NCBI GenBank assembly: GCA_964440095.1 | Contig: CAYTPZ010000002.1 | Span: forward strand, 1,764 to 65,763 | Length of the DNA: 64,000 nt | From: an uncultured bacterium | Lineage (GTDB): Bacteria; Krumholzibacteriota; Krumholzibacteriia; JACNKJ01 | Direction of reading: 5' to 3' | In this document: piece by piece, positions 1,726 through 60,971 of the stretch | Numbering within the stretch: position 1 is the stretch's first letter | Layout: each line of letters opens with the position of its first letter | The notes under the pieces: generated by a model | What the model was told of the DNA's origin: nothing | What the model saw: only the letters and a program-made list of their open reading frames with translations | The model's database searches: none | Translations under genes and position numbers: made by a program

Positions 1726-1777
1726 AAGGCGGCTAGGCATGTGACCCCTCCCCTCTTTCCAGCTTCACATGTCACCT

Positions 1778-1806
1778 GGGAAGGGATCACACCCCTTCCC
1801 TTTTTC
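1778..1806 (+). terminator. Rho-independent terminator-like hairpin (GGGAAGGG...CCCTTCCC followed by TTTTT) after the first CDS
   Basis: 8-bp GC stem followed by a T5 tract, lying between convergent genes. Confidence 0.45.
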
Positions 1807-1971
1807 GTGTTCAACCTACAGGAAAACCGACTGTACCGTAGTCATCGTCAGTCGATCCGAACAACACACGACAAGCTCGTGTGATAGCTAATCCTTGGCA
1901 GAAGATGTTTTTGGGGAACTTGTGTGGGGGGGCGGCCGCGAGTTTCGAGCGCGAGGAAATGCCGCGAGCGC

Positions 1972-3813
1972 CTATTTAACCAGCACCAACTTCTCGCTGC
2001 CCGCGGCTTGACCATCCACATTCAGCGTGGCGAAGTAGATGCCGCTCGCCATGGGCTCGCCGTGCTCGTCGCGTCCATCCCAGGCCATTTCCCAACGCCC
2101 TGCAGGTTGCCGGCTGTCTTCAAGCACCTTCACCGTGCGCCCGCTCGCGTCCACGATGCGAAGCTCCACCTGTGCATCGCGCTCCAACTCGAAGCAGATT
2201 CGCGTGACGGGATTGAAGGGGTTGGGATAGGGGCTCAACATGCGACCGGCTGCGGCGGGAGCCTCAGCCAGACTGGTGGGATCGTAACCCGCATTGATGA
2301 GAACTTCGAGCAGGGTGGGTCCATCCACAATCGGATCGCTGGGAGGAATGGTATCCTCGCCCGCCTGGGCATACTCGCGAATGGCATCCACCGCGATGTG
2401 TCCCCAGTCGCCGGTGGACAAATCGCCAATAGCCACATAGGCCTCCTGGCCAATCAAGGTTTCGGTGTTCCAGAGCCGCTCGCTCATGAAGTGGGAGTGG
2501 TTCCCTGTTTCCGTGAAGAGCACGCGGTCCGTGGCGTAGTCGATGAGCGCGACAAAGCAGACATCGGGAAGATCTCCGCCGCCCACACGAAGGCCGACTC
2601 GATCTTCGGTCACGGTGAAGGGATCACTCTTGAGCAGTCCCCACTTTTCGTTGCCCTGGAATCCGCCGAGGTCCTCGTCGGAGGGCTCGGGGTAATCCTC
2701 ATAGGTGCCCAGGAATGAATTGCCCTGCAGGTTGCTGTGACCGGCTCCCCGCTGATAGGGGTTGTCTCCCCAGGTGGGCTGGTTGTTGAAGGCATTGCCG
2801 ATATAGGTGTGCCACCAAGGCTGCAGGCCGTCCAGGCGATGGATCTCGGGAATGTTGTCTTCGGTCTCCAGCAGCATCTCGTCGAAGCGCAGGAAGTAGA
2901 TGATGTTCTCCACGGTCACCAGGCCGTTGAAGCGGCTGAAGATGGTCTCGTCGTCGAACTTGGTGACCTCCGCGCCGTGGCCTTCGTCGATGATCACGTC
3001 TTCCGCGATTTCCCATCCATTGAAGGGATCCGTACTCACGCGATGGTGAGTGCCGGTGATGTTTTCTTCGGTGAAGAAGAAGTGATACAAGCCGAACTCG
3101 TCTTTGATGAGCTGCACGCTCTCGATCATGTTGGTGTTCTCATGTGAGTAGAACGGACCCTGATCGATCCAGTGCAGCAGGTCCGTGCTCATGGCCAGGC
3201 TTACCGCGCCTGTGGAATCGGCCATGCGTGCCGTATTGAGCATGTAATACTCGCGGTCATCTTCGATGTGGAAGATTTCCGGGTCGCGGCAGTTGGACCA
3301 GGGCCAGTTCTGATTCTCCTCGAACCAGAAAGCCCAGGACCCCGGATTGTAGATGGGGTTGTTCAGGAAACGATCCCAGTTATAGAGATCCGAACTCTTG
3401 GCGCCGCCGGCCTGCTGCGTTACCCACTCGTTCGCGCCCGTGTAGTAAAGGTACCAGCCATCGTCTTCGGGTTTTTCAATAATATCGGGTGCCCAGATGA
3501 ATTCACTTTCCCAGGTTCCGGGGATCACCGGAAGAATGCTGTCTTGGCGAGTCCAATGGCGAAGGTCGGGGCTGGTGATATGACCGAGCCACTTTTCCTC
3601 GCGCATTCCGCCGTTGATGGGTGGGTAGCTCTGAATGAAGAAAACATGGTAGATGCCTTCGTTCTTGACCATGCAGTGATCCTTGACCACCACGCCCACG
3701 TCTTCCACGAAGTAGGGCTGCTCGAAGTCAAAGAGGATACCCGCCGACGCCGCATAAGCAGCGCCAAAGACCAGGAACGTAAAAATGATAAGACGAGATT
3801 GAAGTCGGATCAT
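1972..3813 (-). CDS. Glycoside hydrolase family 32-like (clan GH-J five-bladed propeller) with signal peptide and C-terminal T9SS sorting domain
   Basis: YHVFFIQ and LGHITSPDL..W..Q.SILPV match the GH32 blocks G.YHLFYQ and WGHATS.DL..W. An RDP motif is present (NCRDPEIF). C-terminus YPNPFNPVTRICFEL...GIYFATL...KLVLVK is a T9SS CTD. Start taken at MIRLQSRLIIFTFLVF (signal peptide). Confidence 0.75.
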   Translation of the reverse strand: MIRLQSRLIIFTFLVFGAAYAASAGILFDFEQPYFVEDVGVVVKDHCMVKNEGIYHVFFIQSYPPINGGMREEKWLGHITSPDLRHWTRQDSILPVIPGTWESEFIWAPDIIEKPEDDGWYLYYTGANEWVTQQAGGAKSSDLYNWDRFLNNPIYNPGSWAFWFEENQNWPWSNCRDPEIFHIEDDREYYMLNTARMADSTGAVSLAMSTDLLHWIDQGPFYSHENTNMIESVQLIKDEFGLYHFFFTEENITGTHHRVSTDPFNGWEIAEDVIIDEGHGAEVTKFDDETIFSRFNGLVTVENIIYFLRFDEMLLETEDNIPEIHRLDGLQPWWHTYIGNAFNNQPTWGDNPYQRGAGHSNLQGNSFLGTYEDYPEPSDEDLGGFQGNEKWGLLKSDPFTVTEDRVGLRVGGGDLPDVCFVALIDYATDRVLFTETGNHSHFMSERLWNTETLIGQEAYVAIGDLSTGDWGHIAVDAIREYAQAGEDTIPPSDPIVDGPTLLEVLINAGYDPTSLAEAPAAAGRMLSPYPNPFNPVTRICFELERDAQVELRIVDASGRTVKVLEDSRQPAGRWEMAWDGRDEHGEPMASGIYFATLNVDGQAAGSEKLVLVK

Positions 3814-3997
3814 TGTGTAGAGCCATCGCCTTGCTAGGATCGGTGTTAGTCGGGTCGCAGGCGACAATTATACCAGATGTTAAAAGCTCCGGTCAAAGCG
3901 GCCGCTCCTCTCGCATCTTATTGTGCCGCAAGCTTTCCGGTAATTCCGATCTCTTTCCCCGCTAGCTTGCCGGCCCACCTTCGACTATGTTTGGAAA

Positions 3998-5041
3998 ATG
4001 AAACTGAAAGGCATACAGCTAGGTCGCGTTCTGGGAATCCCCGTTCGCCTGCACTTCACCTTCCCATTCTTCCTCGTGGTGATCGTCGCGGTGGAAACCT
4101 ATGGGGGTGGTTGGCGGGCCGGTCTGCACATTGCGGGCGTGCTCATCTCGCTATTCATCTTCGTGCTGCTTCACGAACTGGGACACAGCGTGGTGGCGCG
4201 TCGGTACGGTATTCCCATCCTGGATATCACGCTCCTGCCTATTGGCGGTGTGGCCCGAACCCTGGGTCTGCCCAAAACATCGGGGCAGGAGATCGCCATC
4301 GCTCTGGCCGGACCGGCTGTGAATTATGTGCTGGCCATCCCCCTGGGTATTGCGGTGGCCACCTTGCCCGATGGCGACCTTCGCGAGTTCGCCATTCCCC
4401 TGCTTTTTGCCAACCTCATGCTTGGCACCTTCAACCTGATTCCCGCCTTTCCCATGGACGGGGGCCGCGTGCTCCGCGCTCTACTCGCCCTGCGCAAGGA
4501 GTATCTGGACGCCACGCGCATCGCGGTCTGGGTCGGCCGAGTTGTGGCAGTGATCTTCGTGGTGGTGGCCGTGGTGGATCGCGAGTGGATCCTTCTCGCC
4601 CTCATCGCGCTGTTCATCTACAACGCCGGCGGCGCCGAACTGCGCCTGGCTCGCAGGCTGCACTCACTGGCCAAGGGTACCGCTCAAAGTGCCGCCGCAC
4701 CTCTTCCGCCTGCCATTCCCGGCGATGCCAGCCTGAGCCGTGCATTTACCTGGCTGGAGAGTTTTCCCTACGTGCCCTACTTCGCCATCGAGATGGATCC
4801 CATCACCATTTCCCTGGTGGGTCGCGAAGAGCTGGGAGACCTTTGCCTCGCCCTGCGCGCCAACATGGAGATATCCCGAGTCACCCTGCATGCGGAAATT
4901 CCCCTGGCCGGGATGAGCTCCTTAGCCGATGCCCGCAGAAGGCTGCAAGAGGCCCATCGCAACATGCTTCCCGTACGCATGCCGAACGGCAGCCTCGGAA
5001 TTCTCACTCTATTGGATTTGGAAGCCTGGCTGGGCGACTAG
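3998..5041 (+). CDS. M50 family (site-2 protease-like) zinc metalloprotease, membrane
   Basis: HELGHS zinc motif inside a TM-rich N-terminal half, followed by a downstream LDG motif. Confidence 0.8.
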   Translation: MKLKGIQLGRVLGIPVRLHFTFPFFLVVIVAVETYGGGWRAGLHIAGVLISLFIFVLLHELGHSVVARRYGIPILDITLLPIGGVARTLGLPKTSGQEIAIALAGPAVNYVLAIPLGIAVATLPDGDLREFAIPLLFANLMLGTFNLIPAFPMDGGRVLRALLALRKEYLDATRIAVWVGRVVAVIFVVVAVVDREWILLALIALFIYNAGGAELRLARRLHSLAKGTAQSAAAPLPPAIPGDASLSRAFTWLESFPYVPYFAIEMDPITISLVGREELGDLCLALRANMEISRVTLHAEIPLAGMSSLADARRRLQEAHRNMLPVRMPNGSLGILTLLDLEAWLGD

Positions 5042-6006
5042 GAGTCGGGCAACTGAGGAATGGCCAGCTGCAGCACTGTGGCGGCCAGGCCCTTCGCGCC
5101 CGCATCCAGCATTTCGGGCATGACCGCGCCCAGGGTGTCCTGAGTGCTGTTGACGTAGGGGAATGCGTCGCCGGGACCTTCCCAAAGGAACATGGCCGGC
5201 AGGCCTTCCAACCAGAACCAGTACTGATCGCTGGCAGGGGCGTTGTATGGATTCGCCCAGTCCAGCGTGTCCAGGGCCACAGGTTCGGCGAGCTCGGCGG
5301 CCAGGGGCAGGGCGTCCGCTCCCATGGCTACGGTTTCGCCGTGGCAGATCAGGCGCAGGTCCTGCTCGCCGTCGCCGTCCCAGCCGATCATGTCCACGTT
5401 GACCATGCAGATCAAACTGTCGGGGCCGGTTTCATTGTCCCAGAATTCCACGTATCGCTTGCTGCCCTTGAAGCCCACTTCCTCGGCGGCGAAGAAGACC
5501 ACACGCACGGTGTAGGCGGTGGGCGTGTCATGAAGAATGCGAGTGAGTTCGAGGAGGGCGGCCACACCCGTGGCGTTGTCCACGGCACCGGGAGAGATAG
5601 TGCTGGAGTCGTTGGCGCTGGCATTGCCCGAAGAGCAGTCCCAATGAGCTCCCACCAACACCTGACGCTCCGGGGCAACCATTCCGGGAAAGTCCACGTA
5701 AACGTTGGCTGTGTGGATCAGGCGACGCCTCATTATTGTGAAAGAGTCCCACTGGGCCACGTTTCCCTGATCTTCGATCCAGCCCACGAGCATGTTCAAA
5801 GCCTGCGTACAACCTTCGTCGTATTCGATATAGCGCGAATGAATCGAGGCGAATTCCGTCACATAGCTCATGAGTTGGGCCTGGGAAATGCTGCCCACGC
5901 GCTCGGAAATGAGCTCGTCCTGGTCCTGATATCCAAGGGGGCAATCGGTGCCTGACTGGCATCCGGCCAGAATGAGGAGTAGCAGAAGAAATAATAAGGG
6001 TTTCAT
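5038..6006 (-). CDS. M28 family aminopeptidase, lipoprotein
   Basis: Lipobox LLLLILAGC; M28 blocks VGAHWDC, GAVDNATGVAALLELTR and FFAAEEVGFKGS. Confidence 0.8.
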   Translation of the reverse strand: MKPLLFLLLLLILAGCQSGTDCPLGYQDQDELISERVGSISQAQLMSYVTEFASIHSRYIEYDEGCTQALNMLVGWIEDQGNVAQWDSFTIMRRRLIHTANVYVDFPGMVAPERQVLVGAHWDCSSGNASANDSSTISPGAVDNATGVAALLELTRILHDTPTAYTVRVVFFAAEEVGFKGSKRYVEFWDNETGPDSLICMVNVDMIGWDGDGEQDLRLICHGETVAMGADALPLAAELAEPVALDTLDWANPYNAPASDQYWFWLEGLPAMFLWEGPGDAFPYVNSTQDTLGAVMPEMLDAGAKGLAATVLQLAIPQLPDS

Positions 6007-6127
6007 TGTGCGAGCATAGGCTACAAGGCTGGGGGTGGCAAGTTGGAATGGATCTTGTCAGGGCTCGCCTGCCTGTCTAGTATTGATGCATCCTCATGAC
6101 CCACGGCTTCACCGTGAAAGGAATAAC

Positions 6128-7078
6128 ATGGATCGCAACCTCGCGCTGGAACTCACGCGCGTTACCGAATCCGCCGCCATCGCTTCGGCCCGCATGCTCG
6201 GGCGCGGAGATCCGAACGAGGCCGACCAGGCCGCCGTCACCGCCATGCGTGATCGCTTCAACGACATCGCCATGGACGGCACAGTGGTCATCGGCGAGGG
6301 CGAGCGCGACGAAGCGCCCATGCTCTACATCGGCGAAAAGGTGGGCACGGGCGATTTGCCCGAGGTGGACATCGCCCTCGATCCTCTGGAGTGCACCAAC
6401 TCTGTGGCCTACGGACGGCCCAACGCTCTGGCCGTGGTGGCCATCGCGCCCAAGGGACACTTCCTGCACGCGCCTGACACCTACATGGAAAAAATCGCTG
6501 TGGGACCCGAGGCTGTGGGCACCATCGATATCAATCGAAGCCCTAGCGAGAACCTGAATACCCTGGCCGAAGTGAAAAAGGTGCAAGTGAGTGACCTCAC
6601 CGTGGCCATTCTCGATCGCGAGCGCCACGAAGATCTTATCGCCGAAGTGCGCCAGCTGGGCTGCCGCATTCACCTGATTCCAGACGGCGACGTGTCGGCG
6701 GCCATCGCCTGCGCGGTGCCCGATTCCACGGTGGACATTCTCATGGGCATCGGCGGTGCGCCTGAAGGCGTGCTGGCGGCTGCGGCCCTTCGCGGATTGG
6801 GCGGCGACATGCAGGGGCGCCTGGCTTTCCGCAACGAGGGCGAAAGGCAGCGCGCCATCAGCATGGGCGTCAAAGACCCGGCCAAGGTTTTTGAGATCAC
6901 TGAATTGGCTCAGGGCGACGACATCATGTTCGTGGCCACGGGCATCACCACCGGCGATTTCCTTCGCGGCGTGGGATTCTATCCCGGCGGTGCCAGGACT
7001 CATAGCATGGTGATCCGCAGCAAGTCGGGCACCTTGCGCTTCATCGAAACCGAACACCGTTGGAACTGGAAACCCTAG
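6128..7078 (+). CDS. glpX: Fructose-1,6-bisphosphatase class II
   Basis: MDRNLALELTRVTE...AAIA N-terminus and GlpX-wide similarity; start chosen at the ATG preceded by an A-rich RBS. Confidence 0.9.
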   Translation: MDRNLALELTRVTESAAIASARMLGRGDPNEADQAAVTAMRDRFNDIAMDGTVVIGEGERDEAPMLYIGEKVGTGDLPEVDIALDPLECTNSVAYGRPNALAVVAIAPKGHFLHAPDTYMEKIAVGPEAVGTIDINRSPSENLNTLAEVKKVQVSDLTVAILDRERHEDLIAEVRQLGCRIHLIPDGDVSAAIACAVPDSTVDILMGIGGAPEGVLAAAALRGLGGDMQGRLAFRNEGERQRAISMGVKDPAKVFEITELAQGDDIMFVATGITTGDFLRGVGFYPGGARTHSMVIRSKSGTLRFIETEHRWNWKP

Positions 7079-7088
7079 GCGGCGGCTT

Positions 7089-8159
7089 ATGGCTTTGAAC
7101 TTCTTGGCGGAACTCGAGAACATGCAAAGTTTCCTGAGCTGGAAGCGAAAGCATCATCCCGATTGGCCGGACCTTCGCCTGGAGTGGGGGCTTTACCACC
7201 ACCTTCGCGGTTCCCTGGCCATGGATCAGGCCGCCGATCCCGATCTTCGCGAGCAGGCCGAGAAGCTGCTCGCCGAGGGCTATCGCACCTTGGCCGAAAG
7301 CCAGGACGCGGCCCGCAGTTTCGGGGAGTTCGCCGAATGGGACGGGTGGGCCGTAACGCATCTGCCCGCCATGGGACAGCCGGTGGAAGCGCCTCGCGGC
7401 GCCGATCTGCGCGAGCACTTCCTCTTGGAGTTGGATGACGACCAGGGCGACATCACAGAGAAGCTTCTGGATCGCGTGGGCGAGCTGGATACCTGCCCCG
7501 AACCGCTGAGGCGGGCGGCCATGGGGCGTCCCTTCCGGCGTCTCTTCGCGTCCATGGCCGAGTATCTGGGATTTCAGGGCGAGTACGATGCCGCCCTGGA
7601 AGCGACGGCTTGGTCGGTTCTTGTGGGTGGACAAAGTGTGGAACACTGGCTTCTCAGCTCGCGTGTGGAGCGCATTTGCGACCGCCGGGTTGAAGCCGGC
7701 GAATTGCTCGATGAGGGCATGAAGCGTTTCCCCGAAAACGTGGCACTCATGCGCGAGCGTTCCGAAGAATACGAGATGCAGAGCAAACACGAGAAGGCCG
7801 CTGAAATTCTCGAAAGAGCTGTGAAGCTCAAACCCAAATGGGCGGACCTGCGTCTTCGCCTGGCACGGGTTTACCGGGAGCTGGAGCAGAGGGATCTATC
7901 GCTGGACCAGTTCGAAAAAGCCTTGGAACTCAACCCTCGCTATGAAAGTGCGGCTCGCGGCCGGGCTGAATTACTCAAAGATCGTGGTCGACATGAAGAA
8001 GCCGAAGCGCTTCTGCAGGCCTGGAGCGAAGACAAGACTCCCCACGCCGAGGTTTATCGAATGCTCAGCGAAATCCTTGCCGAGCGTGAAGACTACCTGG
8101 CCGCCGAACGATTCGCGCGCCTGAGTCAGTCCGGAGCCGAGAAGCATGAAGATGCTTAG
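7089..8159 (+). CDS. TPR-repeat protein, hypothetical
   Basis: C-terminal TPR-like helical repeats (AEILERAVKLKPKWADLRLRLARVY..., FEKALELNPRYESA...). Confidence 0.6.
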   Translation: MALNFLAELENMQSFLSWKRKHHPDWPDLRLEWGLYHHLRGSLAMDQAADPDLREQAEKLLAEGYRTLAESQDAARSFGEFAEWDGWAVTHLPAMGQPVEAPRGADLREHFLLELDDDQGDITEKLLDRVGELDTCPEPLRRAAMGRPFRRLFASMAEYLGFQGEYDAALEATAWSVLVGGQSVEHWLLSSRVERICDRRVEAGELLDEGMKRFPENVALMRERSEEYEMQSKHEKAAEILERAVKLKPKWADLRLRLARVYRELEQRDLSLDQFEKALELNPRYESAARGRAELLKDRGRHEEAEALLQAWSEDKTPHAEVYRMLSEILAEREDYLAAERFARLSQSGAEKHEDA

Positions 8160-9738
8160 GCGAATCGCCTTCCTTCTAGCCCTCTGCCTTATCTCGTCGG
8201 CCACGGCGGACATCAACTGGACCTTCGATCAGCCCTACTTCGTGGAAGAATATGGCGTGAAGACCAAGGATCACGCGCTGGTTTATCACGATGGCCTCTA
8301 CCACCTCTTCTACATTCAGAGTTTTGAAGGCGGAACCCTGCCGGGCTATCGGCTCGAGCAGTGGTTGGGTCATGTGACCAGCGAAGATCTGCGCACCTGG
8401 ACCCATCATGACAGCATTCTGCCCGTGGTTCCGGGAACCTGGGAAGAGGGTTTTATCTGGGCGCCGGACATAATTGAGAATCCCTTCGGTACCGGCTGGG
8501 TCATGCTCTACACGGGAGCGGAGTACAATTTGGAGGCACGTCAACGCATGGGCGTGGCCTACAGCGAAGACCTTTACACCTGGACACGCGAGCCGGCCAA
8601 TCCCGTGTATGAGCCCGACACGTGGACCGATTGGGCGGATCCCGTTTACGAGTCCGCCAATTGCCGCGACCCCGAATTGTTCCAGATACCCGGTTACCCG
8701 GGATGGCACCTTGTGAACTCGGTGAGAACTTCCGAGGGGTTCGGCGCTTTGGCTCTGGCCTACAGCGAAGATTTCATCAACTGGACTCAACAGGACACGC
8801 TCTTCTACCACGGCAGTCCCAACATGCTTGAGAGCGTGAACCTTTACGTGGATACCTCAGATCGAAAGCACATGTTCTACACGGAATTCAATCACGGCGG
8901 AACCTCACACATGTCCAGCGCCAATTACCTGGGCGGATGGGACAAGAACAACGCCATAAGTTTCGACTCCGGCGAAGGCCCGGAGGTGTCGCAGCTCAAT
9001 GGGAAGATCATCTTCAGTCGCTACAGCGCCGATTACCCTATAGATCTGGAACGCTACTACATCGAGTTCGACTGTATTGATGCGGCCATCCTGGATCCAC
9101 CGGACATGGTCAAACTGGAAGGCTTGCAGGACCACTGGCACATTCGCTTCGGCGAGGCCTTCGATTATCAGCCCACCTTTGGAGACAATCCCATCGTGCG
9201 GGGAAATTCCAGCACGAACATGGAGGGCAACAGCTACCTGGCCACCTCCGAGAAATACATGTCGCCCCACGGGCCCGGCGCCATCGGCCAACAGACGGGC
9301 CCAGCTCCCACGGGTTTGCTCGAGTCCGATCCCTTCAATGTGCAGCGGGATCGTTTCAGTATGTTGATCGGCGGCGGCAATATGCCCGAGCATTGCTTCA
9401 TCGCCATGGTGAGGGTGAGTGATGGGCGGATCATGCTGCGTGAAATGGGTCCGGACGCTTGGGAGATGGAGCGCCGAATCTGGGACACCAGCACGCTCGT
9501 GGGCGAGGAAGTGTTCATTGCCATCGTGGATCTGGCCAGCTACTCCAGCGGCAGCATGTGGGGATGGATCGCCGTGGACAGCATTCGCGAGTACCCCTTC
9601 ACCGGCAGCGATGAGGTCACGCCCTCAACTCCTTTGGTGGAGGATCTCTACCTGGCGCAGATCGTGGAGGATGCGGGCTTCGATTATCCCGCGACGCAGA
9701 GTAGCGACTTCTCGAAGCTGCGGAAGCTCTTCCGCTAG
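8146..9738 (+). CDS. Glycoside hydrolase family 32-like, secreted paralog lacking a T9SS CTD
   Basis: Signal peptide; TKDHALVYHDGLYHLFYIQ...WLGHVTSEDLRTW...ILPVVP corresponds to the GH32 N-terminal blocks; NCRDPELF (RDP motif); paralog of the 1972-3813 gene. Confidence 0.75.
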   Translation: MKMLRRIAFLLALCLISSATADINWTFDQPYFVEEYGVKTKDHALVYHDGLYHLFYIQSFEGGTLPGYRLEQWLGHVTSEDLRTWTHHDSILPVVPGTWEEGFIWAPDIIENPFGTGWVMLYTGAEYNLEARQRMGVAYSEDLYTWTREPANPVYEPDTWTDWADPVYESANCRDPELFQIPGYPGWHLVNSVRTSEGFGALALAYSEDFINWTQQDTLFYHGSPNMLESVNLYVDTSDRKHMFYTEFNHGGTSHMSSANYLGGWDKNNAISFDSGEGPEVSQLNGKIIFSRYSADYPIDLERYYIEFDCIDAAILDPPDMVKLEGLQDHWHIRFGEAFDYQPTFGDNPIVRGNSSTNMEGNSYLATSEKYMSPHGPGAIGQQTGPAPTGLLESDPFNVQRDRFSMLIGGGNMPEHCFIAMVRVSDGRIMLREMGPDAWEMERRIWDTSTLVGEEVFIAIVDLASYSSGSMWGWIAVDSIREYPFTGSDEVTPSTPLVEDLYLAQIVEDAGFDYPATQSSDFSKLRKLFR

Positions 9739-10188
9739 TTACTTCCGATAGAGCGATTTGACCATGGTCCAGGTTTCTTCGGCCGTGGGTACAGCGCAGT
9801 AGACGCTCGCGATTTGATCAGCGAGATAGAGCAGATCGCCGCCACCCTCCGCATACACTTCCAGCACGTAGGGATAATCTCCGGCCGTCATGGGCAGGCT
9901 GCCGTTGTCTGTTCCGTCCCATACTACAGAGTGGGAGCCCGTACTTTTGAAACCGCTGACGAGAGTGCGCACCAGGTTTTCGCCGTCTTCCGACAAAACG
10001 AACAACAGCACCAGTCCATCGCTATCGAGTTCATAGCTGATGGTCGTAGGGCTGTAGTCGGGTTCGCCCGGAATGTTGCAGAAGGGATTCGGATCATTGT
10101 CGCCCAGGTTCCAGGCAGCGCCGGCGGGCAGGGCGATGAGGGCTGCGAAGGCGAAGGCCATTAGGCTCAGGATGTGGGCGCGCTTCAT
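9739..10188 (-). CDS. Small secreted protein made of a T9SS-CTD/FlgD-Ig-like beta-sandwich domain
   Basis: Signal peptide MKRAHILSLMAFAFAALIALPAGA, then NDPNPFCNIPGE..TTISYEL...SHSVVWDGTDNGS...AGDYPYVLEV, which follows the CTD/FlgD_ig pattern. Confidence 0.55.
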   Translation of the reverse strand: MKRAHILSLMAFAFAALIALPAGAAWNLGDNDPNPFCNIPGEPDYSPTTISYELDSDGLVLLFVLSEDGENLVRTLVSGFKSTGSHSVVWDGTDNGSLPMTAGDYPYVLEVYAEGGGDLLYLADQIASVYCAVPTAEETWTMVKSLYRK

Positions 10189-10743
10189 GATGTCATCCTT
10201 GGGTGCAAGTGTAGGCCATAATTTTACCATTAACTAGGACAAGATGGAAGGGGCTGGCCGCTGGCCGCTAACCGCCAGAGCGGGAATGGCTCAGGCTGTG
10301 GCAGCTGGAACAGAGTGTGGTCAAATTGCTTAGTTGATTGCCTCCGTTCCTTTTGAGACTCCGACTTTGTAAAACGCACCACCACTCGTGCCTTGGTAAA
10401 TGGCAACTCGCCGACTGCTACAGCCTTCTTAACTTCTGGCAATTCGCGAAACGATTCGGCGAGTCGCTAAAACTGATAGAATTGCGCATCGGAAATCTTC
10501 AGGGCTTCGCGCGAGTATTGGCGCATGGAAGAATAGCCGAAAGCCCATGCGCAAGAGTTAAGGTTAAGTTACAACAACAATTAGCGAATATCGCAAAACT
10601 GTATCCCCGAATGTGTGAAACGCTGATTTCCTGTGCAATTGAAGCTCGGGTCAATCCGCCTTGGTGCGCGGTTTAGTCTCCGGAATCTACTACTGACTAT
10701 CCGTTAATTGTTCCCGGCCATAGTTCCCTGCTATGGTCCACGC

Positions 10744-12063
10744 ATGGAACTCTTTGAACGTCAAAGCGCCTCGCCTCTGGCCGACCGCATGCGCCCCGAA
10801 ACCCTGGACGGCTTCGTGGGGCAGGAGCAAATCCTCGGCCCGGGCAAACCCCTGCGGCGATTCATCGAAAGCGGCAAGCTGTCCAGCTCGCTCCTGTTCT
10901 GGGGGCCGCCGGGGACGGGAAAAACCACATTGGCTCGAATACTGGCGGGAGTTGTGGACGCGGAATTCGTCAGCTTCAGTGCCGTGACCAGCGGCGTGAA
11001 GGAAGTGCGAAGCATCGTGGCCGCCGCCCGCGAACGGCTGATCCTGAACGGACGCCGGACCATGCTCTTCGTGGATGAGATCCATCGATTCAACAAAGCT
11101 CAGCAGGACGCCTTTCTCCCCCACGTGGAAGACGGCACCGTAATTCTCGTGGGAGCCACCACCGAGAACCCCAGCTTCGAAGTGAACAGCGCGCTGCTCA
11201 GTCGCAGCCGAGTCTTCACCCTTCGGTCTCTCAATGAAAATGACATCCTTACTCTGCTGAAGCGCGCGCTGCTCGATCCGGACAAGGGCCTGGGCGATCT
11301 GGAACTGGAATTCGAAGAGGGAGCGCTGGAGGCCATTGCGGGAACTGCCAGCGGCGATGCGCGCACGGCCCTGAATTCGCTGGAGATGCTCGCCGAAAGC
11401 TTGGACGGTGAAAAGCATGTGAGCCTGAGCCAGGTGGCCGACTTCGCCGAGCGTCGTAGTCACATTTACGACAAGGCGGGCGAGGAGCATTACAATCTTA
11501 TCAGCGCCCTGCATAAATGCCTGCGCGACAGCGATCCCGACGCCAGTCTCTACTGGGCCACGCGCATGCTGGAATCGGGGGAAGATCCTCTCTATGTCAT
11601 GAGGCGTCTGGTCAGGTTCGCCAGCGAAGATATCGGCAACGCCGATCCCCGTGCTCTGCAGGTAGCGGTATCGTGTATGCAGGCAGTGCATTTTCTGGGC
11701 ATGCCCGAGGCCGACACGGCGGTGGCCCAGTGCGTCCTTTATCTTGCTACTGCGCCCAAGAGCAACTCGGTCTATTCGGCCATCAAGTCGGCCAAGGGCG
11801 ATGTGGAATCTCTACCCGACGCGCCTGTGCCCCTGCACCTTCGCAACGCGCCCACAAGCCTGATGAAGGAGCTTGGCTACGGCAAAGGCTACGAATACGC
11901 CCACGGAGATGCCGACGCGGTGGTGGATCAATCGCATTTTCCCGATGAAATCGGGGTGAGGCGTTACTATCACCCCACTAATCGAGGCTACGAATCGCGG
12001 GTGCGCGCCTTCCTGGAATGGCTGGAAGAGCAGAAGGTCGAGCGCCGGAAGGAGGGCAAATGA
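10744..12063 (+). CDS. rarA: Replication-associated recombination protein A (AAA+ ATPase)
   Basis: Walker A GPPGTGKTT, Walker B LFVDEIHRFNK, and the MgsA/RarA C-terminal helical domains. Confidence 0.9.
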   Translation: MELFERQSASPLADRMRPETLDGFVGQEQILGPGKPLRRFIESGKLSSSLLFWGPPGTGKTTLARILAGVVDAEFVSFSAVTSGVKEVRSIVAAARERLILNGRRTMLFVDEIHRFNKAQQDAFLPHVEDGTVILVGATTENPSFEVNSALLSRSRVFTLRSLNENDILTLLKRALLDPDKGLGDLELEFEEGALEAIAGTASGDARTALNSLEMLAESLDGEKHVSLSQVADFAERRSHIYDKAGEEHYNLISALHKCLRDSDPDASLYWATRMLESGEDPLYVMRRLVRFASEDIGNADPRALQVAVSCMQAVHFLGMPEADTAVAQCVLYLATAPKSNSVYSAIKSAKGDVESLPDAPVPLHLRNAPTSLMKELGYGKGYEYAHGDADAVVDQSHFPDEIGVRRYYHPTNRGYESRVRAFLEWLEEQKVERRKEGK

Positions 12064-12350
12064 GAATTCGTCCCCTGGTGGCCACGGCCATGGGCACCTG
12101 GGATGGCCGGCGTGGCTACCTCTGGCATCTGGCTGTTGAGCCCGAGCTGCAGAGCCGTGGGCTGGGGCGCAAGATGCTCGAGGCTCTGGGAGAGGCTTAC
12201 CGAAAGTTGGGGATCCCCAAGGTCACCTTTCAGATTGAAACCAGCAATCGCGAAGTGTTGGGCTTCTACCTGCGCATGGGCTATCACACAAGAGACGATC
12301 TCGTTTGTGTGAGCAAAGTTCTTCAACAGTCTGCCAAGGAGGAACGATGA
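12060..12350 (+). CDS. GNAT-family N-acetyltransferase, apparently truncated to the C-terminal half
   Basis: Motif A QSRGLGRKML preceded by the beta4-like LWHLAVEP; only about 97 aa; ATGA overlap with the rarA stop. Confidence 0.4.
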   Translation: MRIRPLVATAMGTWDGRRGYLWHLAVEPELQSRGLGRKMLEALGEAYRKLGIPKVTFQIETSNREVLGFYLRMGYHTRDDLVCVSKVLQQSAKEER

Positions 12351-13102
12351 GCCGCAAAGAGTGGTGGGAGAGTTTTTTCCGGGGCGCGTGGCTCGATGTG
12401 CAAAAGGGCCGCGACACGGCCGAAATCGTGGATCCAGCGGCGGGCTTTATCGAACTGGCCCTGGCCCTTGAGCCCGGCGCGCGAGTGCTGGATGTGCCCT
12501 GCGGCGAAGGGCGCCTTAGCCGCGCCATGGCCCGCAAGGGTTATCGGGCCAGCGGCCTGGACATCACGGGTAGCCTCCTTACCCAAGCCAGGAAGCAGGC
12601 CAGGGCCGAAAAGCTCGACATGGAGTTCAAGCAGGGCGATATGCGGAAGATCCCCTGGCGAAATCGTTTCCACGGCGCTTTCTGCTGGTGGGGGAGCTTC
12701 GGATACTTCGACGACGCGGGTAATTTGGCCTTTCTGAAATCGGTTCATCGCTCGCTGAAGCCCGGCGGCCGCTTCCTCTTGGATGGCCACTGCGCCGAAA
12801 CCCTCTTCCCATCCTTCGATGAACGTCAGTGGATAGAAGAGGGGAGTACCACCGCGCTGCTCGAGAACCACTACGATGCCAGCACCGGTCGTGTGGAAAT
12901 GGACTGGACTCTCATCAAGAATGGCCGGCGAAGCCGTCGCCACAGTTCCATTCGCATTTATACTTTGAAGGAACTCAGTGAACTCGCCTGGGAGGCAGGC
13001 TTCTCGGAAGTTCATGCCTTCGGTGGTCTATCGGGAGAGGCCTTCGAATTGGGGGCGCCACGCCTTCTTCTGCTGGCTGAAAAGGCAGGAAGCGTTCGTT
13101 AA
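12347..13102 (+). CDS. Class I SAM-dependent methyltransferase
   Basis: Motif I VLDVPCGEGRLS, followed by acidic-loop and motif II-like blocks. Confidence 0.7.
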   Translation: MSRKEWWESFFRGAWLDVQKGRDTAEIVDPAAGFIELALALEPGARVLDVPCGEGRLSRAMARKGYRASGLDITGSLLTQARKQARAEKLDMEFKQGDMRKIPWRNRFHGAFCWWGSFGYFDDAGNLAFLKSVHRSLKPGGRFLLDGHCAETLFPSFDERQWIEEGSTTALLENHYDASTGRVEMDWTLIKNGRRSRRHSSIRIYTLKELSELAWEAGFSEVHAFGGLSGEAFELGAPRLLLLAEKAGSVR

Positions 13103-23298: not shown

Positions 23299-23586
23299 GA
23301 GCTCGTGATCTCCTCTCGCGCTCCGGCTCGCAGACTCGCAAGTCGCGCATCGAGGAGTCACATCGCTCCAGCTTCACAATTCATTCGGAGGGCCGTCAGG
23401 TCCTCCCTTTTCTTTGTTCCCACTTGTTGCGCGAACTCATTGCAATTGAGAAAGTTGGACTGGTGACGGCGAGGTCTTGTGGGGGGAAGCTTACGAAATC
23501 TGGGATTCCGATTGTCTGGATCCGACCAGTGCTCCCGGTTCTCCGCAGCTTCCCACCTGCTGGAGTTCGGTGAAGGCTCTCTACCG

Positions 23587-56192: not shown

Positions 56193-57629
56193 ATGTCTCT
56201 GCATGTGTACGATCCCATCCGCAAAAAGAAGGTCGAGTTCCAGCCCGTCCAAGACGGCAAGGTGGGAATGTACTTCTGCGGCATGACTGTTCAGGGTGAA
56301 CCCCATGTGGGACACATGCTTGCGGCTCTCACAGGCGATATGGTTCGTCGCTATCTGGAGTACAAGGGCTTCGAAGTCACCTTGGCCCAGAACTTCACGG
56401 ATATCGACGATAAGATCCTGGCCAAGGCGGCCGAGGAGGGCGTGAGCTATCAGGAAGTGGCCCAGCGGAACATCGACCTGTTCTTCAAATTCTCCGATGC
56501 CCTGAACATTCAGCACGCGACGGTCTATCCCAAAGCCACCGAGCACATTGCGGAGATGCACGAGATCATCGAGAAGCTCATTGAGAAGGGTCACGCCTAC
56601 GAGTCCAATGGTGACGTCTATTATAATGTGAAGAGCTTCGACGACTACGGCCGTCTTTCCGGACGCCGGGTCAACGAGCTGAGATCCGGCGTGCGTGTGG
56701 ATGTGGAAGACGGCAAGCGCGACGACCTGGATTTCGCTCTCTGGAAGAGCGTTCCCAAGGATGAGCCCGGCTTTGATAGCCCTTGGGGCTGGGGGCGCCC
56801 GGGCTGGCATATCGAGTGCTCGGCCATGAGTATGAAGTACTGCGGCCAAACCCTCGATTTCCATGGCGGCGGTCTGGATCTGAAGTTTCCCCATCACGAG
56901 AACGAGCGCGCCCAGAGCGAGGCGGCCACGGGCCAGACCTTCTCTAACGCGTGGCTGCACAATGGGATGGTGACGGTCCACGGCGAGAAGATGAGCAAAT
57001 CCGATGGGAATTACGTGTCCATGACCCAGCTTCTCGAGTGGTACGAGCCCGAGACGGTGCGCTTCTACCTGCTTTCCACGCACTTCCGCAGTCGGGCCGA
57101 ATTCGACCGCGAACAGCTGGATCGGGCCGGTGTCAGCCTGGATCGTATCAGCGAATTCAGTTTGGGTCTGCACGAGCGCCTGGCCAAGTCGCCCGAGAAC
57201 ATGGAAGTGCAATCCGAAGCAGGACAGGCACTTGTAGCTGCCTCGGCCCAGGCTCTTGAGCGTTGGACCGAGGCCATGGACGACGATTTCAACACGGGCG
57301 GAGCTATCGGCCACATTTTCGAGCTGGTGAAGGAGTTCAATCGCCTGGTGGCCGAAGACGACCAGGGCCTTTCGGCCGACCGCCGAGGTCTTGAGGCTGC
57401 CCGGTCGGCCCTGGAAACCATGGCTGGCGTTCTTGGATTGTTCAAGGACGGTCTTCCGAAAGAGCGGCAACTCGAAGCACCCGAAGAGCTTATGCAGTGG
57501 GTTGCCGATCGCGAGGCCGCCCGGGCCGCAAAGGATTGGGCCGAAGCCGATCGTCTCCGCGATCTTGTGGCCGAAGCCGGATTCGAAATCATGGATGGCG
57601 CGGGTGGAAGTCAGGTTAGGAAGCGTTAA
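56193..57629 (+). CDS. cysS: Cysteinyl-tRNA synthetase
   Basis: CGMTVQGEPHVGH (HIGH region); KMSKS motif present. Confidence 0.9.
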   Translation: MSLHVYDPIRKKKVEFQPVQDGKVGMYFCGMTVQGEPHVGHMLAALTGDMVRRYLEYKGFEVTLAQNFTDIDDKILAKAAEEGVSYQEVAQRNIDLFFKFSDALNIQHATVYPKATEHIAEMHEIIEKLIEKGHAYESNGDVYYNVKSFDDYGRLSGRRVNELRSGVRVDVEDGKRDDLDFALWKSVPKDEPGFDSPWGWGRPGWHIECSAMSMKYCGQTLDFHGGGLDLKFPHHENERAQSEAATGQTFSNAWLHNGMVTVHGEKMSKSDGNYVSMTQLLEWYEPETVRFYLLSTHFRSRAEFDREQLDRAGVSLDRISEFSLGLHERLAKSPENMEVQSEAGQALVAASAQALERWTEAMDDDFNTGGAIGHIFELVKEFNRLVAEDDQGLSADRRGLEAARSALETMAGVLGLFKDGLPKERQLEAPEELMQWVADREAARAAKDWAEADRLRDLVAEAGFEIMDGAGGSQVRKR

Positions 57630-57716
57630 CCGCTGACCGCCAGAAGACTTCTTTTTCGGCTCCGGAGAGGGTGTTTTTCTTGCGGTTAGCGGCTAGCCGT
57701 CAGCGGTTGGCGGCCC
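57627..57716 (+). repeat. Heptad-periodic palindromic element: (TAACCGC, TGACCGC)...40-nt spacer...(GCGGTTA, GCGGCTA, GCCGTCA, GCGGTTG, GCGGCCC)
   Basis: Read directly from the sequence; begins at the cysS stop codon. Confidence 0.6.
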
Positions 57717-57737
57717 TAGCTTTTTTCTGCTATCCCC

Positions 57738-57767
57738 TTGACACTTTTCGACTTTCCACTTTAATAT
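57738..57767 (+). promoter_or_regulatory. Sigma-70-like promoter for the tRNA-tuf operon (TTGACA, 18-nt spacer, TAATAT)
   Basis: Consensus -35 hexamer and a 4/6 -10 hexamer about 130 nt upstream of tRNA-Thr. Confidence 0.5.
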
Positions 57768-57894: not shown

Positions 57895-57967
57895 GCTGGC
57901 GTAGCTCAACTGGTAGAGCTTCTCACTTGTAATGAGAAGGTTGGGGGTTCAAGTCCTCTCGCCAGCT
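57895..57967 (+). tRNA. tRNA-Thr (anticodon TGT)
   Basis: Cloverleaf; acceptor GCTGGCG/CGCCAGC; anticodon loop CTTGTAA. Confidence 0.85.
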
Positions 57968-57988
57968 CCTGATCGGCGGAGTTTTTTT

Positions 57989-58070
57989 GGAGGGGTTCCC
58001 GAGTGGTCAAAGGGATCAGACTGTAAATCTGACGGCGAAGCCTTCGGAGGTTCAAATCCTCCCCCCTCCA
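57989..58070 (+). tRNA. tRNA-Tyr (anticodon GTA), long variable arm
   Basis: Acceptor GGAGGGG/CCCCTCC; anticodon loop CTGTAAA; 82 nt. Confidence 0.85.
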
Positions 58071-58107
58071 CCGACCCGGCAGCGAGGATGAAACCGAGCT
58101 GCTTTTT

Positions 58108-58181
58108 GCGGGAATAGCTCAGCTGGCTAGAGCATCAGCCTTCCAAGCTGAGGGTCGCGGGTTCGAATCCCGTTTCCCGCT
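58108..58181 (+). tRNA. tRNA-Gly (anticodon TCC)
   Basis: Acceptor GCGGGAA/TTCCCGC; anticodon loop CTTCCAA. Confidence 0.85.
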
Positions 58182-58199
58182 CCGTTGTTGAAACAGGGT

Positions 58200-58272
58200 G
58201 CCCAGGTAGCTCAGTCGGTAGAGCACATCCTTGGTAAGGATGAGGTCGTCAGTTCAAATCTGATCCTGGGCT
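58200..58272 (+). tRNA. tRNA-Thr (anticodon GGT)
   Basis: Acceptor GCCCAGG/CCTGGGC; anticodon loop TTGGTAA. Confidence 0.85.
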
Positions 58273-58344
58273 CCGCCTTTCTGCAATCCCGCGCCGCGGA
58301 TAGAGGTGCGGCTCATCCAACGATCCTTAGGAGGTCGACTCGCC

Positions 58345-59547: not shown

Positions 59548-59697
59548 ATGCGAGAAATCGTTAAGCTACGTTGCACCAAGTGCGAGAAGCACTGGTACAC
59601 GACTATGAAAAACAAGCGGCTTCACCCGGACCGAATCGAGCAGAAGAAGTACTGCCCGCGGGACCGGGAGCACACGGTTTTCAAGGAAGCAAGATAA
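59548..59697 (+). CDS. rpmG: 50S ribosomal protein L33
   Basis: 49 aa; C..C...Y.T.KNK...P.R...KKYCP zinc-ribbon pattern; location between tuf and tRNA-Trp. Confidence 0.8.
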   Translation: MREIVKLRCTKCEKHWYTTMKNKRLHPDRIEQKKYCPRDREHTVFKEAR

Positions 59698-59701
59698 ACG
59701 C

Positions 59702-59770
59702 TAACCGCTATCCGCTTTCCGCAAGCCGCCAGAGAGCGGTCGGCGGTTGGCGGTCGACGGTAAGCGGTTA
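59702..59770 (+). repeat. Heptad-periodic palindromic element: (TAACCGC, TATCCGC, TTTCCGC, AAGCCGC) CAGAGA (GCGGTCG, GCGGTTG, GCGGTCG, ACGGTAA, GCGGTTA), abutting the tRNA-Trp 5' end
   Basis: Read directly from the sequence; same heptad family as 57627-57716. Confidence 0.6.
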
Positions 59771-59843
59771 GGCCAGTAGCTCTAATTGGTAGAGCGCCGG
59801 TCTCCAAAACCGGATGTTGGGGGTTCGAATCCCTCCTGGCCTG
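59770..59843 (+). tRNA. tRNA-Trp (anticodon CCA)
   Basis: Acceptor AGGCCAG/CTGGCCT; anticodon loop CTCCAAA; classic position upstream of secE. Confidence 0.85.
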
Positions 59844-59851
59844 CCTGGTGG

Positions 59852-59917
59852 AGTCGCCAGTCGCAAGTCGCAAGTCGCCAGGGAAACATGGAGACTCGAG
59901 ACTGGAGACTGGAGACA
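59852..59917 (+). repeat. Two blocks of four tandem heptamers (AGTCGCC/AGTCGCA x4, then GGAGACT/CGAGACT x4) forming an imperfect hairpin upstream of secE
   Basis: Read directly from the sequence; the two arms are near-complementary with one mismatch per heptad. Confidence 0.6.
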
Positions 59918-59932
59918 AAGAAAGGACCCGAG

Positions 59933-60130
59933 ATGATCACCAAGATTCGGAATTACATCCGCGAAGTCTGGCTCGAGATGGGCAAGGTTACTTGGCCGAC
60001 CCGGGACGAGCTGAAGGAGTCGACTCGCGTTGTCATCATCGGATCCTTTTTCTTGACTTTGTTCATTTTCGTGATCGACCGCATCATGGGCTTCGGCATT
60101 GACGGCATTACCCGTCTGCTGGGCTCTTAA
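59933..60130 (+). CDS. secE: Preprotein translocase subunit SecE
   Basis: 65 aa with a single C-terminal TM helix (VVIIGSFFLTLFIFVIDRIMGF); AAAGGA RBS; an in-frame ATG at 59888 would add 15 aa. Confidence 0.75.
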   Translation: MITKIRNYIREVWLEMGKVTWPTRDELKESTRVVIIGSFFLTLFIFVIDRIMGFGIDGITRLLGS

Positions 60131-60164: not shown

Positions 60165-60971
60165 ATGGAAGAGCGGGAGAAGGACATGACTTCCGAAGCC
60201 GAAGGCCAAGTGCCTGAGGCCGCCGCTCCCGTGGAGAGCCCTTTCGGGGGCGGGGACGTGGTGGAAGAGACCGTGGAGCCGGAGCTCGATGAGAGCGCTT
60301 CTGAGGATGAATCCGAGGAGGCGGTCACGGCCGAAGCAACAGGCGATGGCGAAGAAGACGAACTCGACGAGGACGACGCCGTTGCGCCGGGCCTTCCGCC
60401 CGTGCAGACCGAGACGCCTCGTAATTCGAAGCTGAAGTGGTATGCGGTGCACACCTACTCGGGACACGAGAACAAGGTGCGCACCAATATGCTTCGCCGG
60501 GTGGTCCTCGAAGGCATGGAGGACAAGATCGACCAGATTCTCATCCCCACCGAAGAGGTGACGGAGATGAAGAAGGGGAAGAAGACGACCGCCACGCGGA
60601 AGTACTTCCCCAGTTACATCCTGGTCGAAATGGAGATGTGCGATGAGGCCTACCACCTCGTCAACGGAATCAGCGGCGTGACAAGTTTCGTGGGCCTCGA
60701 CCCGCGCGAGCCGTCTCGTCGTCCCGTGCCCCTGCGACCGGCCGAAGTGGATCGGGTGCTCGGGCGCATTGAACGACCCACGGAGCACAAGGTCACGGAA
60801 ATACCCTATCAGGTGGGCGACCACGTGAAGGTCATGGATGGACCTTTCAGCGATTTCAACGGAATCGTCGACGAGGTCAACAAGGAACGCGGAACCCTCA
60901 AGGTCATGGTGACCATCTTCGGCAGGGAAACGCCGGTGGAACTCGACTTCCTGCAGGTTGAACCTCTCTAG
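60165..60971 (+). CDS. nusG: Transcription termination/antitermination factor NusG with an approximately 85-aa acidic N-terminal extension
   Basis: NGN domain ([14 protein letters not shown]); KOW domain ([21 protein letters not shown]); GGAGG RBS. Confidence 0.85.

Follow-up and report, generated by a model that had tools for sequence, protein, structure and literature searches.

Inverted heptanucleotide arrays bracketing tRNA-Trp upstream of secE: classification and comparative analysis of a heptad hairpin in an uncultured bacterial lineage

The spacer between tRNA-Trp and secE in a 64,000-nucleotide stretch of contig CAYTPZ010000002.1 (the window), from an uncultured bacterium of a Latescibacterota/Krumholzibacteriota-like lineage, holds a hairpin whose two arms consist of tandem 7-nt repeats, which raises the question of whether it is a control element dedicated to secE or one member of a wider class. 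Two heptad hairpins flank tRNA-Trp in the interval from rpmG to secE, hairpin A on the upstream side of the tRNA and the present element, hairpin B, on its downstream side, just ahead of secE. Hairpin B is not a dedicated secE regulator; it is a fast-changing, losable member of a widespread class. Its classification and origin as an inverted pair of intergenic heptanucleotide arrays (a "heptad hairpin") are highly probable, and a role in RNA processing or stability is offered tentatively, as somewhat doubtful; the explanation that blends classification, origin and RNA role falls a little short of an even chance.

Sequence and structure of hairpin B

Hairpin B is a real structure, far from chance. 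It reads AGTCGCC AGTCGCA AGTCGCA AGTCGCC, then AGGGAAACAT, then GGAGACT CGAGACT GGAGACT GGAGAC. Tandem Repeats Finder (TRF) reports a period-7 array in each arm, one of 3.9 copies with the unit AGTCGCA and 95% matches (59852-59878) and one of 4.0 copies with the unit TGGAGAC and 90% matches (59889-59916), and an inverted-repeat search returns arms of 28 nt that are 79% complementary and separated by 8 nt (59853-59880 / 59889-59916). Set in register, the 28 positions comprise 22 Watson-Crick pairs, no G-U pair and six mismatches, four of which are G·A at the identical heptad phase, the other two (A·G and A·C) falling on the M position of the 5' unit. The RNA fold has a predicted energy of -31.1 kcal/mol (z = -4.63; equalled by 0 of 200 shuffles) and the DNA fold one of -17.3 kcal/mol (z = -4.58); hairpins A and B stay independent modules when the whole spacer is folded. 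The pattern GAGACTNGAGACT gives three matches against 0.26 expected, a count reached in 0 of 100 shuffles, and among lags 4-12 only lag 7 yields 21-nt windows with at least 18 of 21 self-matches in the 64 kb. The initial annotation, which had read the element from the sequence as an AGTCGCM x4 / GGAGACW x4 hairpin with one mismatch per heptad, placed between tRNA-Trp and secE, was correct in all of this.

Like intergenic heptanucleotide tandem repeats, hairpin B has at least three head-to-tail copies outside coding sequence and a period-7 excess, and like inverted heptamer pairs it consists of convergent arrays of complementary units lying close together. Neither unit holds a run of three or more G, so the hairpin does not qualify as a G-quadruplex element.

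The AGTCGCM unit is found at one locus within the window and the related CCGC unit at three (Table 1). Hairpin A, the first of these, abuts the 5' end of tRNA-Trp directly 3' of the rpmG stop codon. The second (ACCGCTG ACCGCCA ... GCGGTTA GCGGCTA GCCGTCA GCGGTTG GCGGCC, then CTTTTTTCTG) belongs to the heptad-element family as well; it overlaps the stop codon of cysS, of which it is the probable terminator. The third, at 10250, looks like a dying copy of the family. Eleven matches to a CCGC-N3 x3 pattern are present against 2.1 expected. Since the junction between 5' arm and loop, YCGCCAGRR, is shared by all four elements, hairpin B is a sequence variant of the CCGC family and not a separate invention, and the kinship proposed in the initial annotation holds. 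Relative to an AGCCGCC/GGCGGCT pair, every unit of hairpin B would carry one compensated change (C-G to T-A) and every 3' unit one uncompensated change (C to A), the latter accounting for the periodic G·A. A further run downstream of oppF (23325-23350), previously listed as a related motif, proved to be at chance level: its units measure 7, 8 and 7 nt and are not 7-periodic, it matches AGTCGCMAGTCGCM only with two mismatches (2.3 such matches being expected by chance), and its local fold is unremarkable (z -1.9).

Table 1. Coordinates of the heptad elements and neighbouring genes in the window, and of heptad hairpins in loci collected from other groups (L-numbers)
Feature	Source	Position	Strand	Evidence
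Degenerate CCGC-type element (GGCCGCT GGCCGCT AACCGCC AGAGCGG...), 3' arm decayed	window	10250..10305	+	lag-7 scan; fold z 0.09
CCGC-type heptad stem enclosing inner hairpin, then T-run	window	57620..57730	+	pattern matches; fold -55 kcal/mol, z -3.6
tuf	window	ends 59535	+	
rpmG	window	59548-59697	+	
Hairpin A, NNCCGCN x4-5 / GCGGTYN x5	window	59699..59771	+	TRF; inverted repeat 30 nt, 73% complementary; fold -40.3 kcal/mol, z -4.3
tRNA-Trp (CCA anticodon), between two heptad hairpins	window	59770..59845	+	ARAGORN; Rfam tRNA 65.3 bits
Hairpin B 5' arm, heptads AGTCGCC AGTCGCA AGTCGCA AGTCGCC (+A)	window	59852..59880	+	TRF period 7; inverted-repeat arm
Hairpin B apical loop GGGAAACA; last base opens ATG 59888-59890	window	59881..59888	+	minimum-free-energy structure
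Hairpin B 3' arm, T GGAGACT CGAGACT GGAGACT GGAGAC(A)	window	59889..59917	+	TRF period 7; pairing table
Unpaired spacer with secE ribosome-binding site (AAGAAAGGACCCGAG; AAAGGA)	window	59918..59932	+	conserved leader part in all relatives
secE, 65 aa, from the start supported by homology	window	ATG 59933 to 60130	+	gene calls on identical contigs, PF00584 match; N-terminus aligns with L008 and other relatives
nusG	window	60165-60971	+	
Heptad hairpins	L052	2122-2219 and 4059-4148		
Heptad hairpin	L056	136-237		
Heptad hairpin	L064	1988-2075		
Heptad hairpins	L075	2180-2280 and 2364-2455		
Heptad hairpin	L048	5991-6082		
Heptad hairpins	L060	2217-2416 and 3625-3769		
Heptad hairpin	L076	4009-4088		
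Heptad hairpin	L079	1683-1761		

On the plus strand the order is tuf, rpmG, hairpin A, tRNA-Trp, hairpin B, a 15-nt spacer, secE, nusG, rplK and rplA, within a co-directional string tRNA(Thr-Tyr-Gly-Thr)-tuf-rpmG-tRNA(Trp)-secE-nusG. A promoter and terminator scan found no sigma-70-like promoter or terminator adjoining hairpin B; a single good promoter-like site was located in the region (TTGACA-18-TAATAT, 57738-57767, 10 of 12 consensus positions), 3' of the cysS element and before the tRNA-Thr/Tyr/Gly/Thr-tuf cluster. As there is no room for a promoter (6 nt upstream, 15 nt downstream) and no terminator T-run, hairpin B is most likely co-transcribed with the tRNA. A stable hairpin directly 3' of a tRNA could also act as a terminator or attenuator, closing the tuf-rpmG-tRNA-Trp transcript and limiting how much transcription continues into secE-nusG, the more so as the sister element at 57620-57730 has a T-run and resembles the cysS terminator. 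The stem of hairpin B is followed by AAAGAAAGG, however, without a T-run and with a negative terminator scan at that place, and relatives manage without the hairpin; with a 15-nt gap to secE and no promoter-like site downstream of the tRNA, efficient termination would silence the essential secE and nusG, which makes this function very unlikely.

The ATG at 59888, which had been noted as an alternative start of secE, exists and is in frame, 45 nt before the ATG at 59933, and gene calls start there on two contigs, L087 and L215, where SecE would be 80 aa long. It might open a 15-residue extension of SecE, or the loop ATG with its AGGGA/AGGA might modulate secE translation, and a Shine-Dalgarno-like AGGGA (AGGA in L087) does precede it within the loop. 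It is, however, common only to the nearest relative, L087; in L089 and L091 the equivalent arm lacks an ATG, and its translation would give unrelated peptides. Conserved coding cannot be reconciled with a 7-nt period, the one 3'-arm difference from L087 would be non-synonymous, and the N-termini of SecE homologues correspond to the residue encoded at 59933. A secE start at 59933 is supported by this homology, and a coding or translational function of the loop ATG is highly unlikely. The secE ribosome-binding site (GAAAGGATCC/GAAAGGACCC) is kept in the window, L087, L089 and L091-L094, and GAAAGGA(T/C)CC is found throughout the subclade.

The neighbouring tRNA-Trp also brings to mind a tRNA-sensing, T-box-like leader, in which UGG-bearing heptads of the 3' arm would pair with the anticodon arm of tRNA-Trp. 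TGGAGACTGG (59903-59912, containing the Trp codon TGG) pairs at 10 of 10 positions, by Watson-Crick and G-U pairs, with CCGGTCTCCA (59797-59806, tRNA positions 28-37), a score attained against the anticodon arm by only 12 of 2000 random heptad arrays. The match is post hoc, though, with four arms tested, and when the whole tRNA is allowed as target, 228 of 2000 random arrays score 10/10; the site is also buried in the stem, and the unit is replaced in relatives. No T-box match arises, as the region matches no Rfam family: with Rfam 15 at gathering and permissive thresholds only the tRNA passes, and the best match on hairpin B, 22.8 bits to a microRNA-precursor model whose threshold is 95, reflects a generic hairpin. 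A tRNA-Trp-sensing leader is thereby scarcely credible.

Turnover of the hairpins among relatives

Orthologous rpmG-tRNA-Trp-secE spacers were gathered from lineages at falling NusG identity, the closest named relatives being Latescibacterota/Krumholzibacteriota metagenome-assembled genomes (MAGs). The window's NusG occurs on 21 metagenome contigs, and the spacer is identical in all six that were read. Copy-number variation, the mark of a phase-variable repeat, was not seen among seven independent metagenome assemblies (L001-L006, L215), whose spacers are identical. In L215 (NusG 99%) both hairpins are identical to those of the window. In L087 (the same as L007; NusG 88%), hairpin A is built from AGTCACC/GGNGACT, a B-type unit and not CCGC, and hairpin B has a nearly unchanged 3' arm and a diverged 5' arm. 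L089 (80%) has GCNGCCA/GCTGGNA in hairpin A and the same unit again in hairpin B, with 4-5 copies per arm; L092 (80%) has degenerate heptads in A and a partial B; L093 (79%) has retained A, B being essentially gone; L094 (76%) has GAGCCGC/GAGGCCY around an inner hairpin at A and no B; and L091 (75%) has a degenerate A and a truncated B. In L008 (76% over the core) there is no A, and the B site is occupied by a plain 9-bp hairpin, GGAGTCGCTCT-TAATTGC-GAGAGCGACT, which opens with GGAGTCGC as the window's does. Neither hairpin is present in L216 (64%) or L217 (84% over 69% of NusG), and the P0011 contig (69%) has no room for them, its spacer being 131 nt long by gene coordinates.

A long hairpin thus stands upstream of tRNA-Trp in the seven lineages that share this tRNA-Trp (the window, L087, L089, L091, L092, L093 and L094), four or five of which have one downstream too. 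The units differ by genome, being AGTCGCM/GGAGACT in the window, GCAGCCA/GCTGGRA in L089 and GAGCCGC/GAGGCCY in L094. Most of the orthologous hairpins fold at z -3.7 to -10.4, and weaker folds are those of L087 A (z -2.6), L092 B (z -1.8), L091 A (z -1.5) and the truncated L091 B (z 0.1). The L215 assembly (JGI Ga0117909_1004417; 1-8000 vs 8181-12733) is identical to the window from tuf onward and has other genes upstream, with a cysS-downstream spacer that is free of heptads and resembles that of L216; this points either to an assembly that is chimeric at the conserved tuf gene or to recombination.

In L089 the cysS terminator, hairpin A and hairpin B are all built from GCTRCCA/GCTGGNN, the terminator combining the window's layout with L089's own heptad unit; in the window CCGC is the unit common to hairpin A, the 10250 element and the probable cysS terminator. 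Units that are homogenised among the loci of a genome and different between genomes amount to concerted evolution, and arm complementarity is kept across genomes at the level of the whole unit. Unit replacement also explains why orthologous hairpins cannot be aligned. Hairpin A is unalignable between the window and L087, at a divergence where hairpin B still aligns, so it was replaced by a process other than point mutation.

A genome-specific unit at dispersed loci is likewise what would be expected if a trans-acting factor read the unit in DNA, and the arrays could then be iterated sites for a genome-specific DNA-binding protein, or a cruciform, serving transcription or chromosome organisation. 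Both strands fold equally well (DNA fold z -4.6), and the annotation of Geobacter metallireducens treats paired heptanucleotide arrays as putative sites for global regulators (PMC2700814). However, no candidate protein was identified, the units of the two arms differ (AGTCGCM vs GGAGACT) so that no single duplex-DNA site is repeated eight times, and the elements lie inside transcription units, by tRNA ends and in terminators, not at promoters. A DNA-level element is judged quite unlikely.

The tempo of change could be read against synonymous sites. At four-fold degenerate sites of rpmG, secE, rplK and rplA, the window differs from L087 by 11.3% (28/248) and from L089 by 30% (72/239). Between the window and L087, the 5' arm of hairpin B differs at 6 of 28 positions and the 3' arm at 1 of 28, neither clearly apart from the 11% background; these seven differences amount to two pairs gained, two lost and three neutral changes, and the stability is unchanged (-31.1 kcal/mol in the window, -31.7 kcal/mol in L087).

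Several results weigh against a function at the RNA level. The window and L087 disagree at 9 of the 87 positions of hairpin B, which is about the neutral (synonymous) rate. L093, L094 and L091 either lack hairpin B or have a truncated form of it, L216, L217 and L008 have neither hairpin, and the P0011 spacer measures only 131 nt; neither tRNA-Trp maturation nor secE expression therefore needs the hairpins. In a strand test of 25 hairpins the sense strand was the more stable in 12, with a mean difference of 0.06 kcal/mol and few G-U pairs, and this symmetry leaves no signature of selection on the transcribed strand. Arm complementarity could stem from conversion of whole hairpins from paralogues and not from selection at the locus, and the RNA-level role itself is inferred throughout. 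The comparison of secE-upstream regions that the initial annotation had proposed showed a heptad hairpin B in L087 and L089 and its loss or truncation in L093, L094 and L091. A leader specific to secE is not supported, given these losses and the absence of the hairpin from the sister lineages L216 and L217, the conserved part being the ribosome-binding site. In annotation, hairpin B should not be named a secE riboswitch, leader or terminator.

The same results suit the main rival explanation, in which the hairpins are a neutral mutational by-product of slippage, quasi-palindrome template switching and ectopic conversion that persists without function in tolerant spacers: divergence at about the synonymous rate, loss or truncation in three close lineages and absence from sister lineages, folding without strand asymmetry, and the decayed copy at 10250 would all be expected. 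Against neutrality, the hairpin upstream of tRNA-Trp is kept in seven of seven subclade lineages over at least 30% synonymous divergence, despite complete replacement of its unit; its arms remain complementary; and the seven assemblies show no copy-number polymorphism.

Heptad hairpins in other phyla and known repeat systems

A lag-7 scan of all collected loci (491 kb) returned 41 period-7 segments, compared with 13 at lag 9, 11 at lag 6 and none at the other lags tested. With genes and tRNAs mapped, paired inverted heptad arrays were located in spacers of the tRNA-tuf-rpmG-secE-nusG-rplKAJL-rpoB cluster of several groups, including Thermoanaerobaculia (L048, L052, L064), other Acidobacteriota (L053, L056, L060), Nitrospiraceae (L076, L079) and an unclassified MAG (L075); another unclassified MAG (L066) has a single heptad array with no inverted partner. 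These hairpins are near-perfect, with roughly 25-65 predicted pairs of tandem heptads, and one unit is usually reused at two or more spacers of a genome, the units including GGATTGA, AGGAGTC, GGCTCTT, CAGATTT, GTGCTGA, GGTCATT and TGCGGAR. They frequently abut a tRNA end, as between rpmG and tRNA-Trp in L056 or between tRNA-Tyr and tRNA-Gly in L064, and in L075 one hairpin stands on each side of tRNA-Thr, which is the window's layout. That such placement recurs in other phyla counts against a purely neutral origin. The genome-wide habit of 7-nt periodic repeats suggested in the initial annotation is real; it is not peculiar to this genome, given its occurrence in relatives, in other phyla and in the literature.

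Three tandem AGTCGCN units were found in at least 120 unrelated metagenome stretches from soil, freshwater, marine and gut samples. Among the matches listed, 19 of the 97 arrays whose flanks are complete have a phased inverted partner, no array is closer than 200 nt to a tRNA, and the window's own locus was not seen. The commonness of these arrays and the low share with a partner favour the neutral explanation, as does the literature, in which no function is reported and 7-nt units are proposed to arise by polymerase slippage (PMC4692102; PMC4679880; 10.1101/309039). Weighed with the retention and placement described above, neutrality is nevertheless rather unlikely. Arrays of AGTCGCN occur twice on one contig in L125 (5077, 12050) and L180 (4185, 4772), and L112, L121, L131 and L163 are among the metagenome contigs with arrays at two places or arrays of 6-10 units. 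Neighbouring arrays show many one-letter variants (CAGTTGC, CAATCGC, CAGCCGC), as if soil bacteria harboured families of related units.

No periodic repeat is more abundant than the tandem heptamer in the intergenic DNA of prokaryotes, where heptamers are over-represented with "no clear clue" to their function (PMC4692102; 10.1101/309039); the over-representation is also attributed to Mrazek et al. 2007, as cited in PMC4679880. The nearest precedent is Xanthomonas, in which each genome has 70-75 GGGAATC arrays, with convergent pairs able to form stem-loops, and in which the type of pair is preserved between species, its length varies and most pairs are transcribed (PMC4692102); Nostoc GGGGAYT is another intergenic inverted heptameric repeat (PMC4692102). 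Like the Xanthomonas pairs, hairpin B comprises tandem intergenic 7-nt units in two convergent arrays with stem-loop potential, kept between the same genes in related genomes with varying length and sequence; one unit serves many loci of a Xanthomonas genome, and in L089 one unit is found at three loci. It departs from them in that its units have no G-tracts and no quadruplex potential, its arms are not exact complements, which yields the periodic G·A, and the hairpins bracket a tRNA, in another phylum.

The P6b hairpin of the group I intron in Nostoc tRNA-Leu(UAA) (trnL) is formed by base-pairing degenerate heptanucleotide repeats, Class I (TDNGATT) and Class II (NNTGAGT), one class having repeatedly been replaced by the other, and it lengthens or shortens as 7-nt units are added to or lost from either side (PMC4476775; PMC3488679). 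Hairpin arms made of tandem 7-nt repeats and wholesale class replacement at an orthologous position are shared with the present hairpins, but P6b lies within a self-splicing intron of a tRNA gene, whereas the hairpins here lie in spacers flanking an intron-less tRNA-Trp, and the unit sequences are unrelated. In Geobacter metallireducens, families of four to five tandem heptanucleotide repeats occur mostly in pairs (PMC2700814). Those arrays resemble hairpin B in having four or five heptads per array and in their pairing; they lie mostly on opposite strands, number dozens of copies per genome with one consensus, are annotated as putative global-regulator binding sites or regulatory RNAs, and differ in consensus (GGACCGG, MTYCTGA).

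Two further systems are less close. Repetitive extragenic palindromes (REPs) and bacterial interspersed mosaic elements (BIMEs) of Enterobacteria and Pseudomonas are likewise imperfect palindromes, specific to a genome and scattered over its transcribed spacers, where they have been proposed to stabilise the mRNA upstream or to assist termination (PMC3333891; PMC3733652; PMC3116915). REPs, however, measure 20-40 nt, are not internally periodic, carry a GTAG/CGTC head and are linked to RAYT (REP-associated tyrosine) transposases; hairpin B is internally 7-periodic and has no such head, and so is neither a REP nor a REPIN (REP doublet forming a hairpin). The TAACTGA repeats of Beggiatoaceae and cyanobacteria are tandem heptamers in 5' leaders near start codons with a genome-specific unit (PMC4679880), as here, but they comprise 169 direct sets and one indirect (PMC4679880), whereas inverted pairing is the main feature of hairpin B. 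Hairpin B belongs, then, to a known and functionally unexplained kind; what is new is its occurrence in another phylum and around a tRNA, the mismatch repeated in every heptad, and a comparative series in which unit replacement and homogenisation within genomes are documented.

Origin, proposed role and significance

The favoured explanation, an inverted pair of heptanucleotide arrays with a possible accessory role in RNA, would begin with a short ordinary stem-loop 3' of the tRNA, such as GGAGTCGCTCT/AGAGCGACT in L008. A 7-nt unit would have been amplified in the manner of slippage on each arm separately, giving a longer stem. A same-phase mismatch in every heptad is most simply explained if two imperfectly complementary units were amplified independently, one on each arm, and templating from arm to arm is disfavoured, as such copying would erase phase-matched mismatches. 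Units would then be homogenised within arrays and exchanged by conversion between the hairpins of one genome, with the result that orthologous hairpins differ and paralogous hairpins agree.

In RNA, hairpin B would form an interrupted helix of 28 positions that starts 8 nt past the end of the tRNA gene as called (the encoded CC included) and ends 15 nt before the secE start, so that the ribosome-binding site would stay free. It would separate maturation of the tRNA from the secE-nusG message and, once the tRNA is excised, could become a protective 5'-terminal stem-loop of that message; alternatively, it could offer a cleavage site to a double-strand-specific RNase. A position flush with tRNA ends and a 28-position helix are consistent with a site for RNase III or other processing. 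Its counterpart at the 3' end of the tuf-rpmG message would be hairpin A, serving there as a cap. Hairpin B is an accessory element, dispensable and subject to rapid turnover.

Two neighbouring features were also recorded. All five tRNA genes (57895-58274; 59770-59845) encode the discriminator base and CC without the terminal A (CCT or CCG comes next), and tRNA-Trp of more distant Latescibacterota-like relatives has the full CCA encoded, a difference that bears on 3'-end maturation. NusG (60165-60420) has an acidic, E/D-rich N-terminal extension of ~85 residues that most homologues have in variable form or not at all, and many database matches cover only ~67-74% of the query.

A bolder and quite improbable reading is that heptad hairpins form a distinct class of concertedly evolving structured elements, each with a genome-specific unit set by a trans-acting factor (a protein reading the repeated helix, or an enzyme adding or copying the unit), that mark processing points across phyla at tRNA ends, cistron boundaries and terminators of highly expressed polycistronic transcripts. 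If this were true, the excess of heptamer repeats in prokaryotic intergenic DNA would gain a functional explanation. The locus leaves the question of heptamer function unsolved; what it offers is a compact comparative system of two hairpins, one tRNA and about ten related lineages, in which the patterns can be read from sequence: the architecture persists as its unit is replaced, the unit is shared among the loci of a genome, and the periodic mismatch points to amplification arm by arm.

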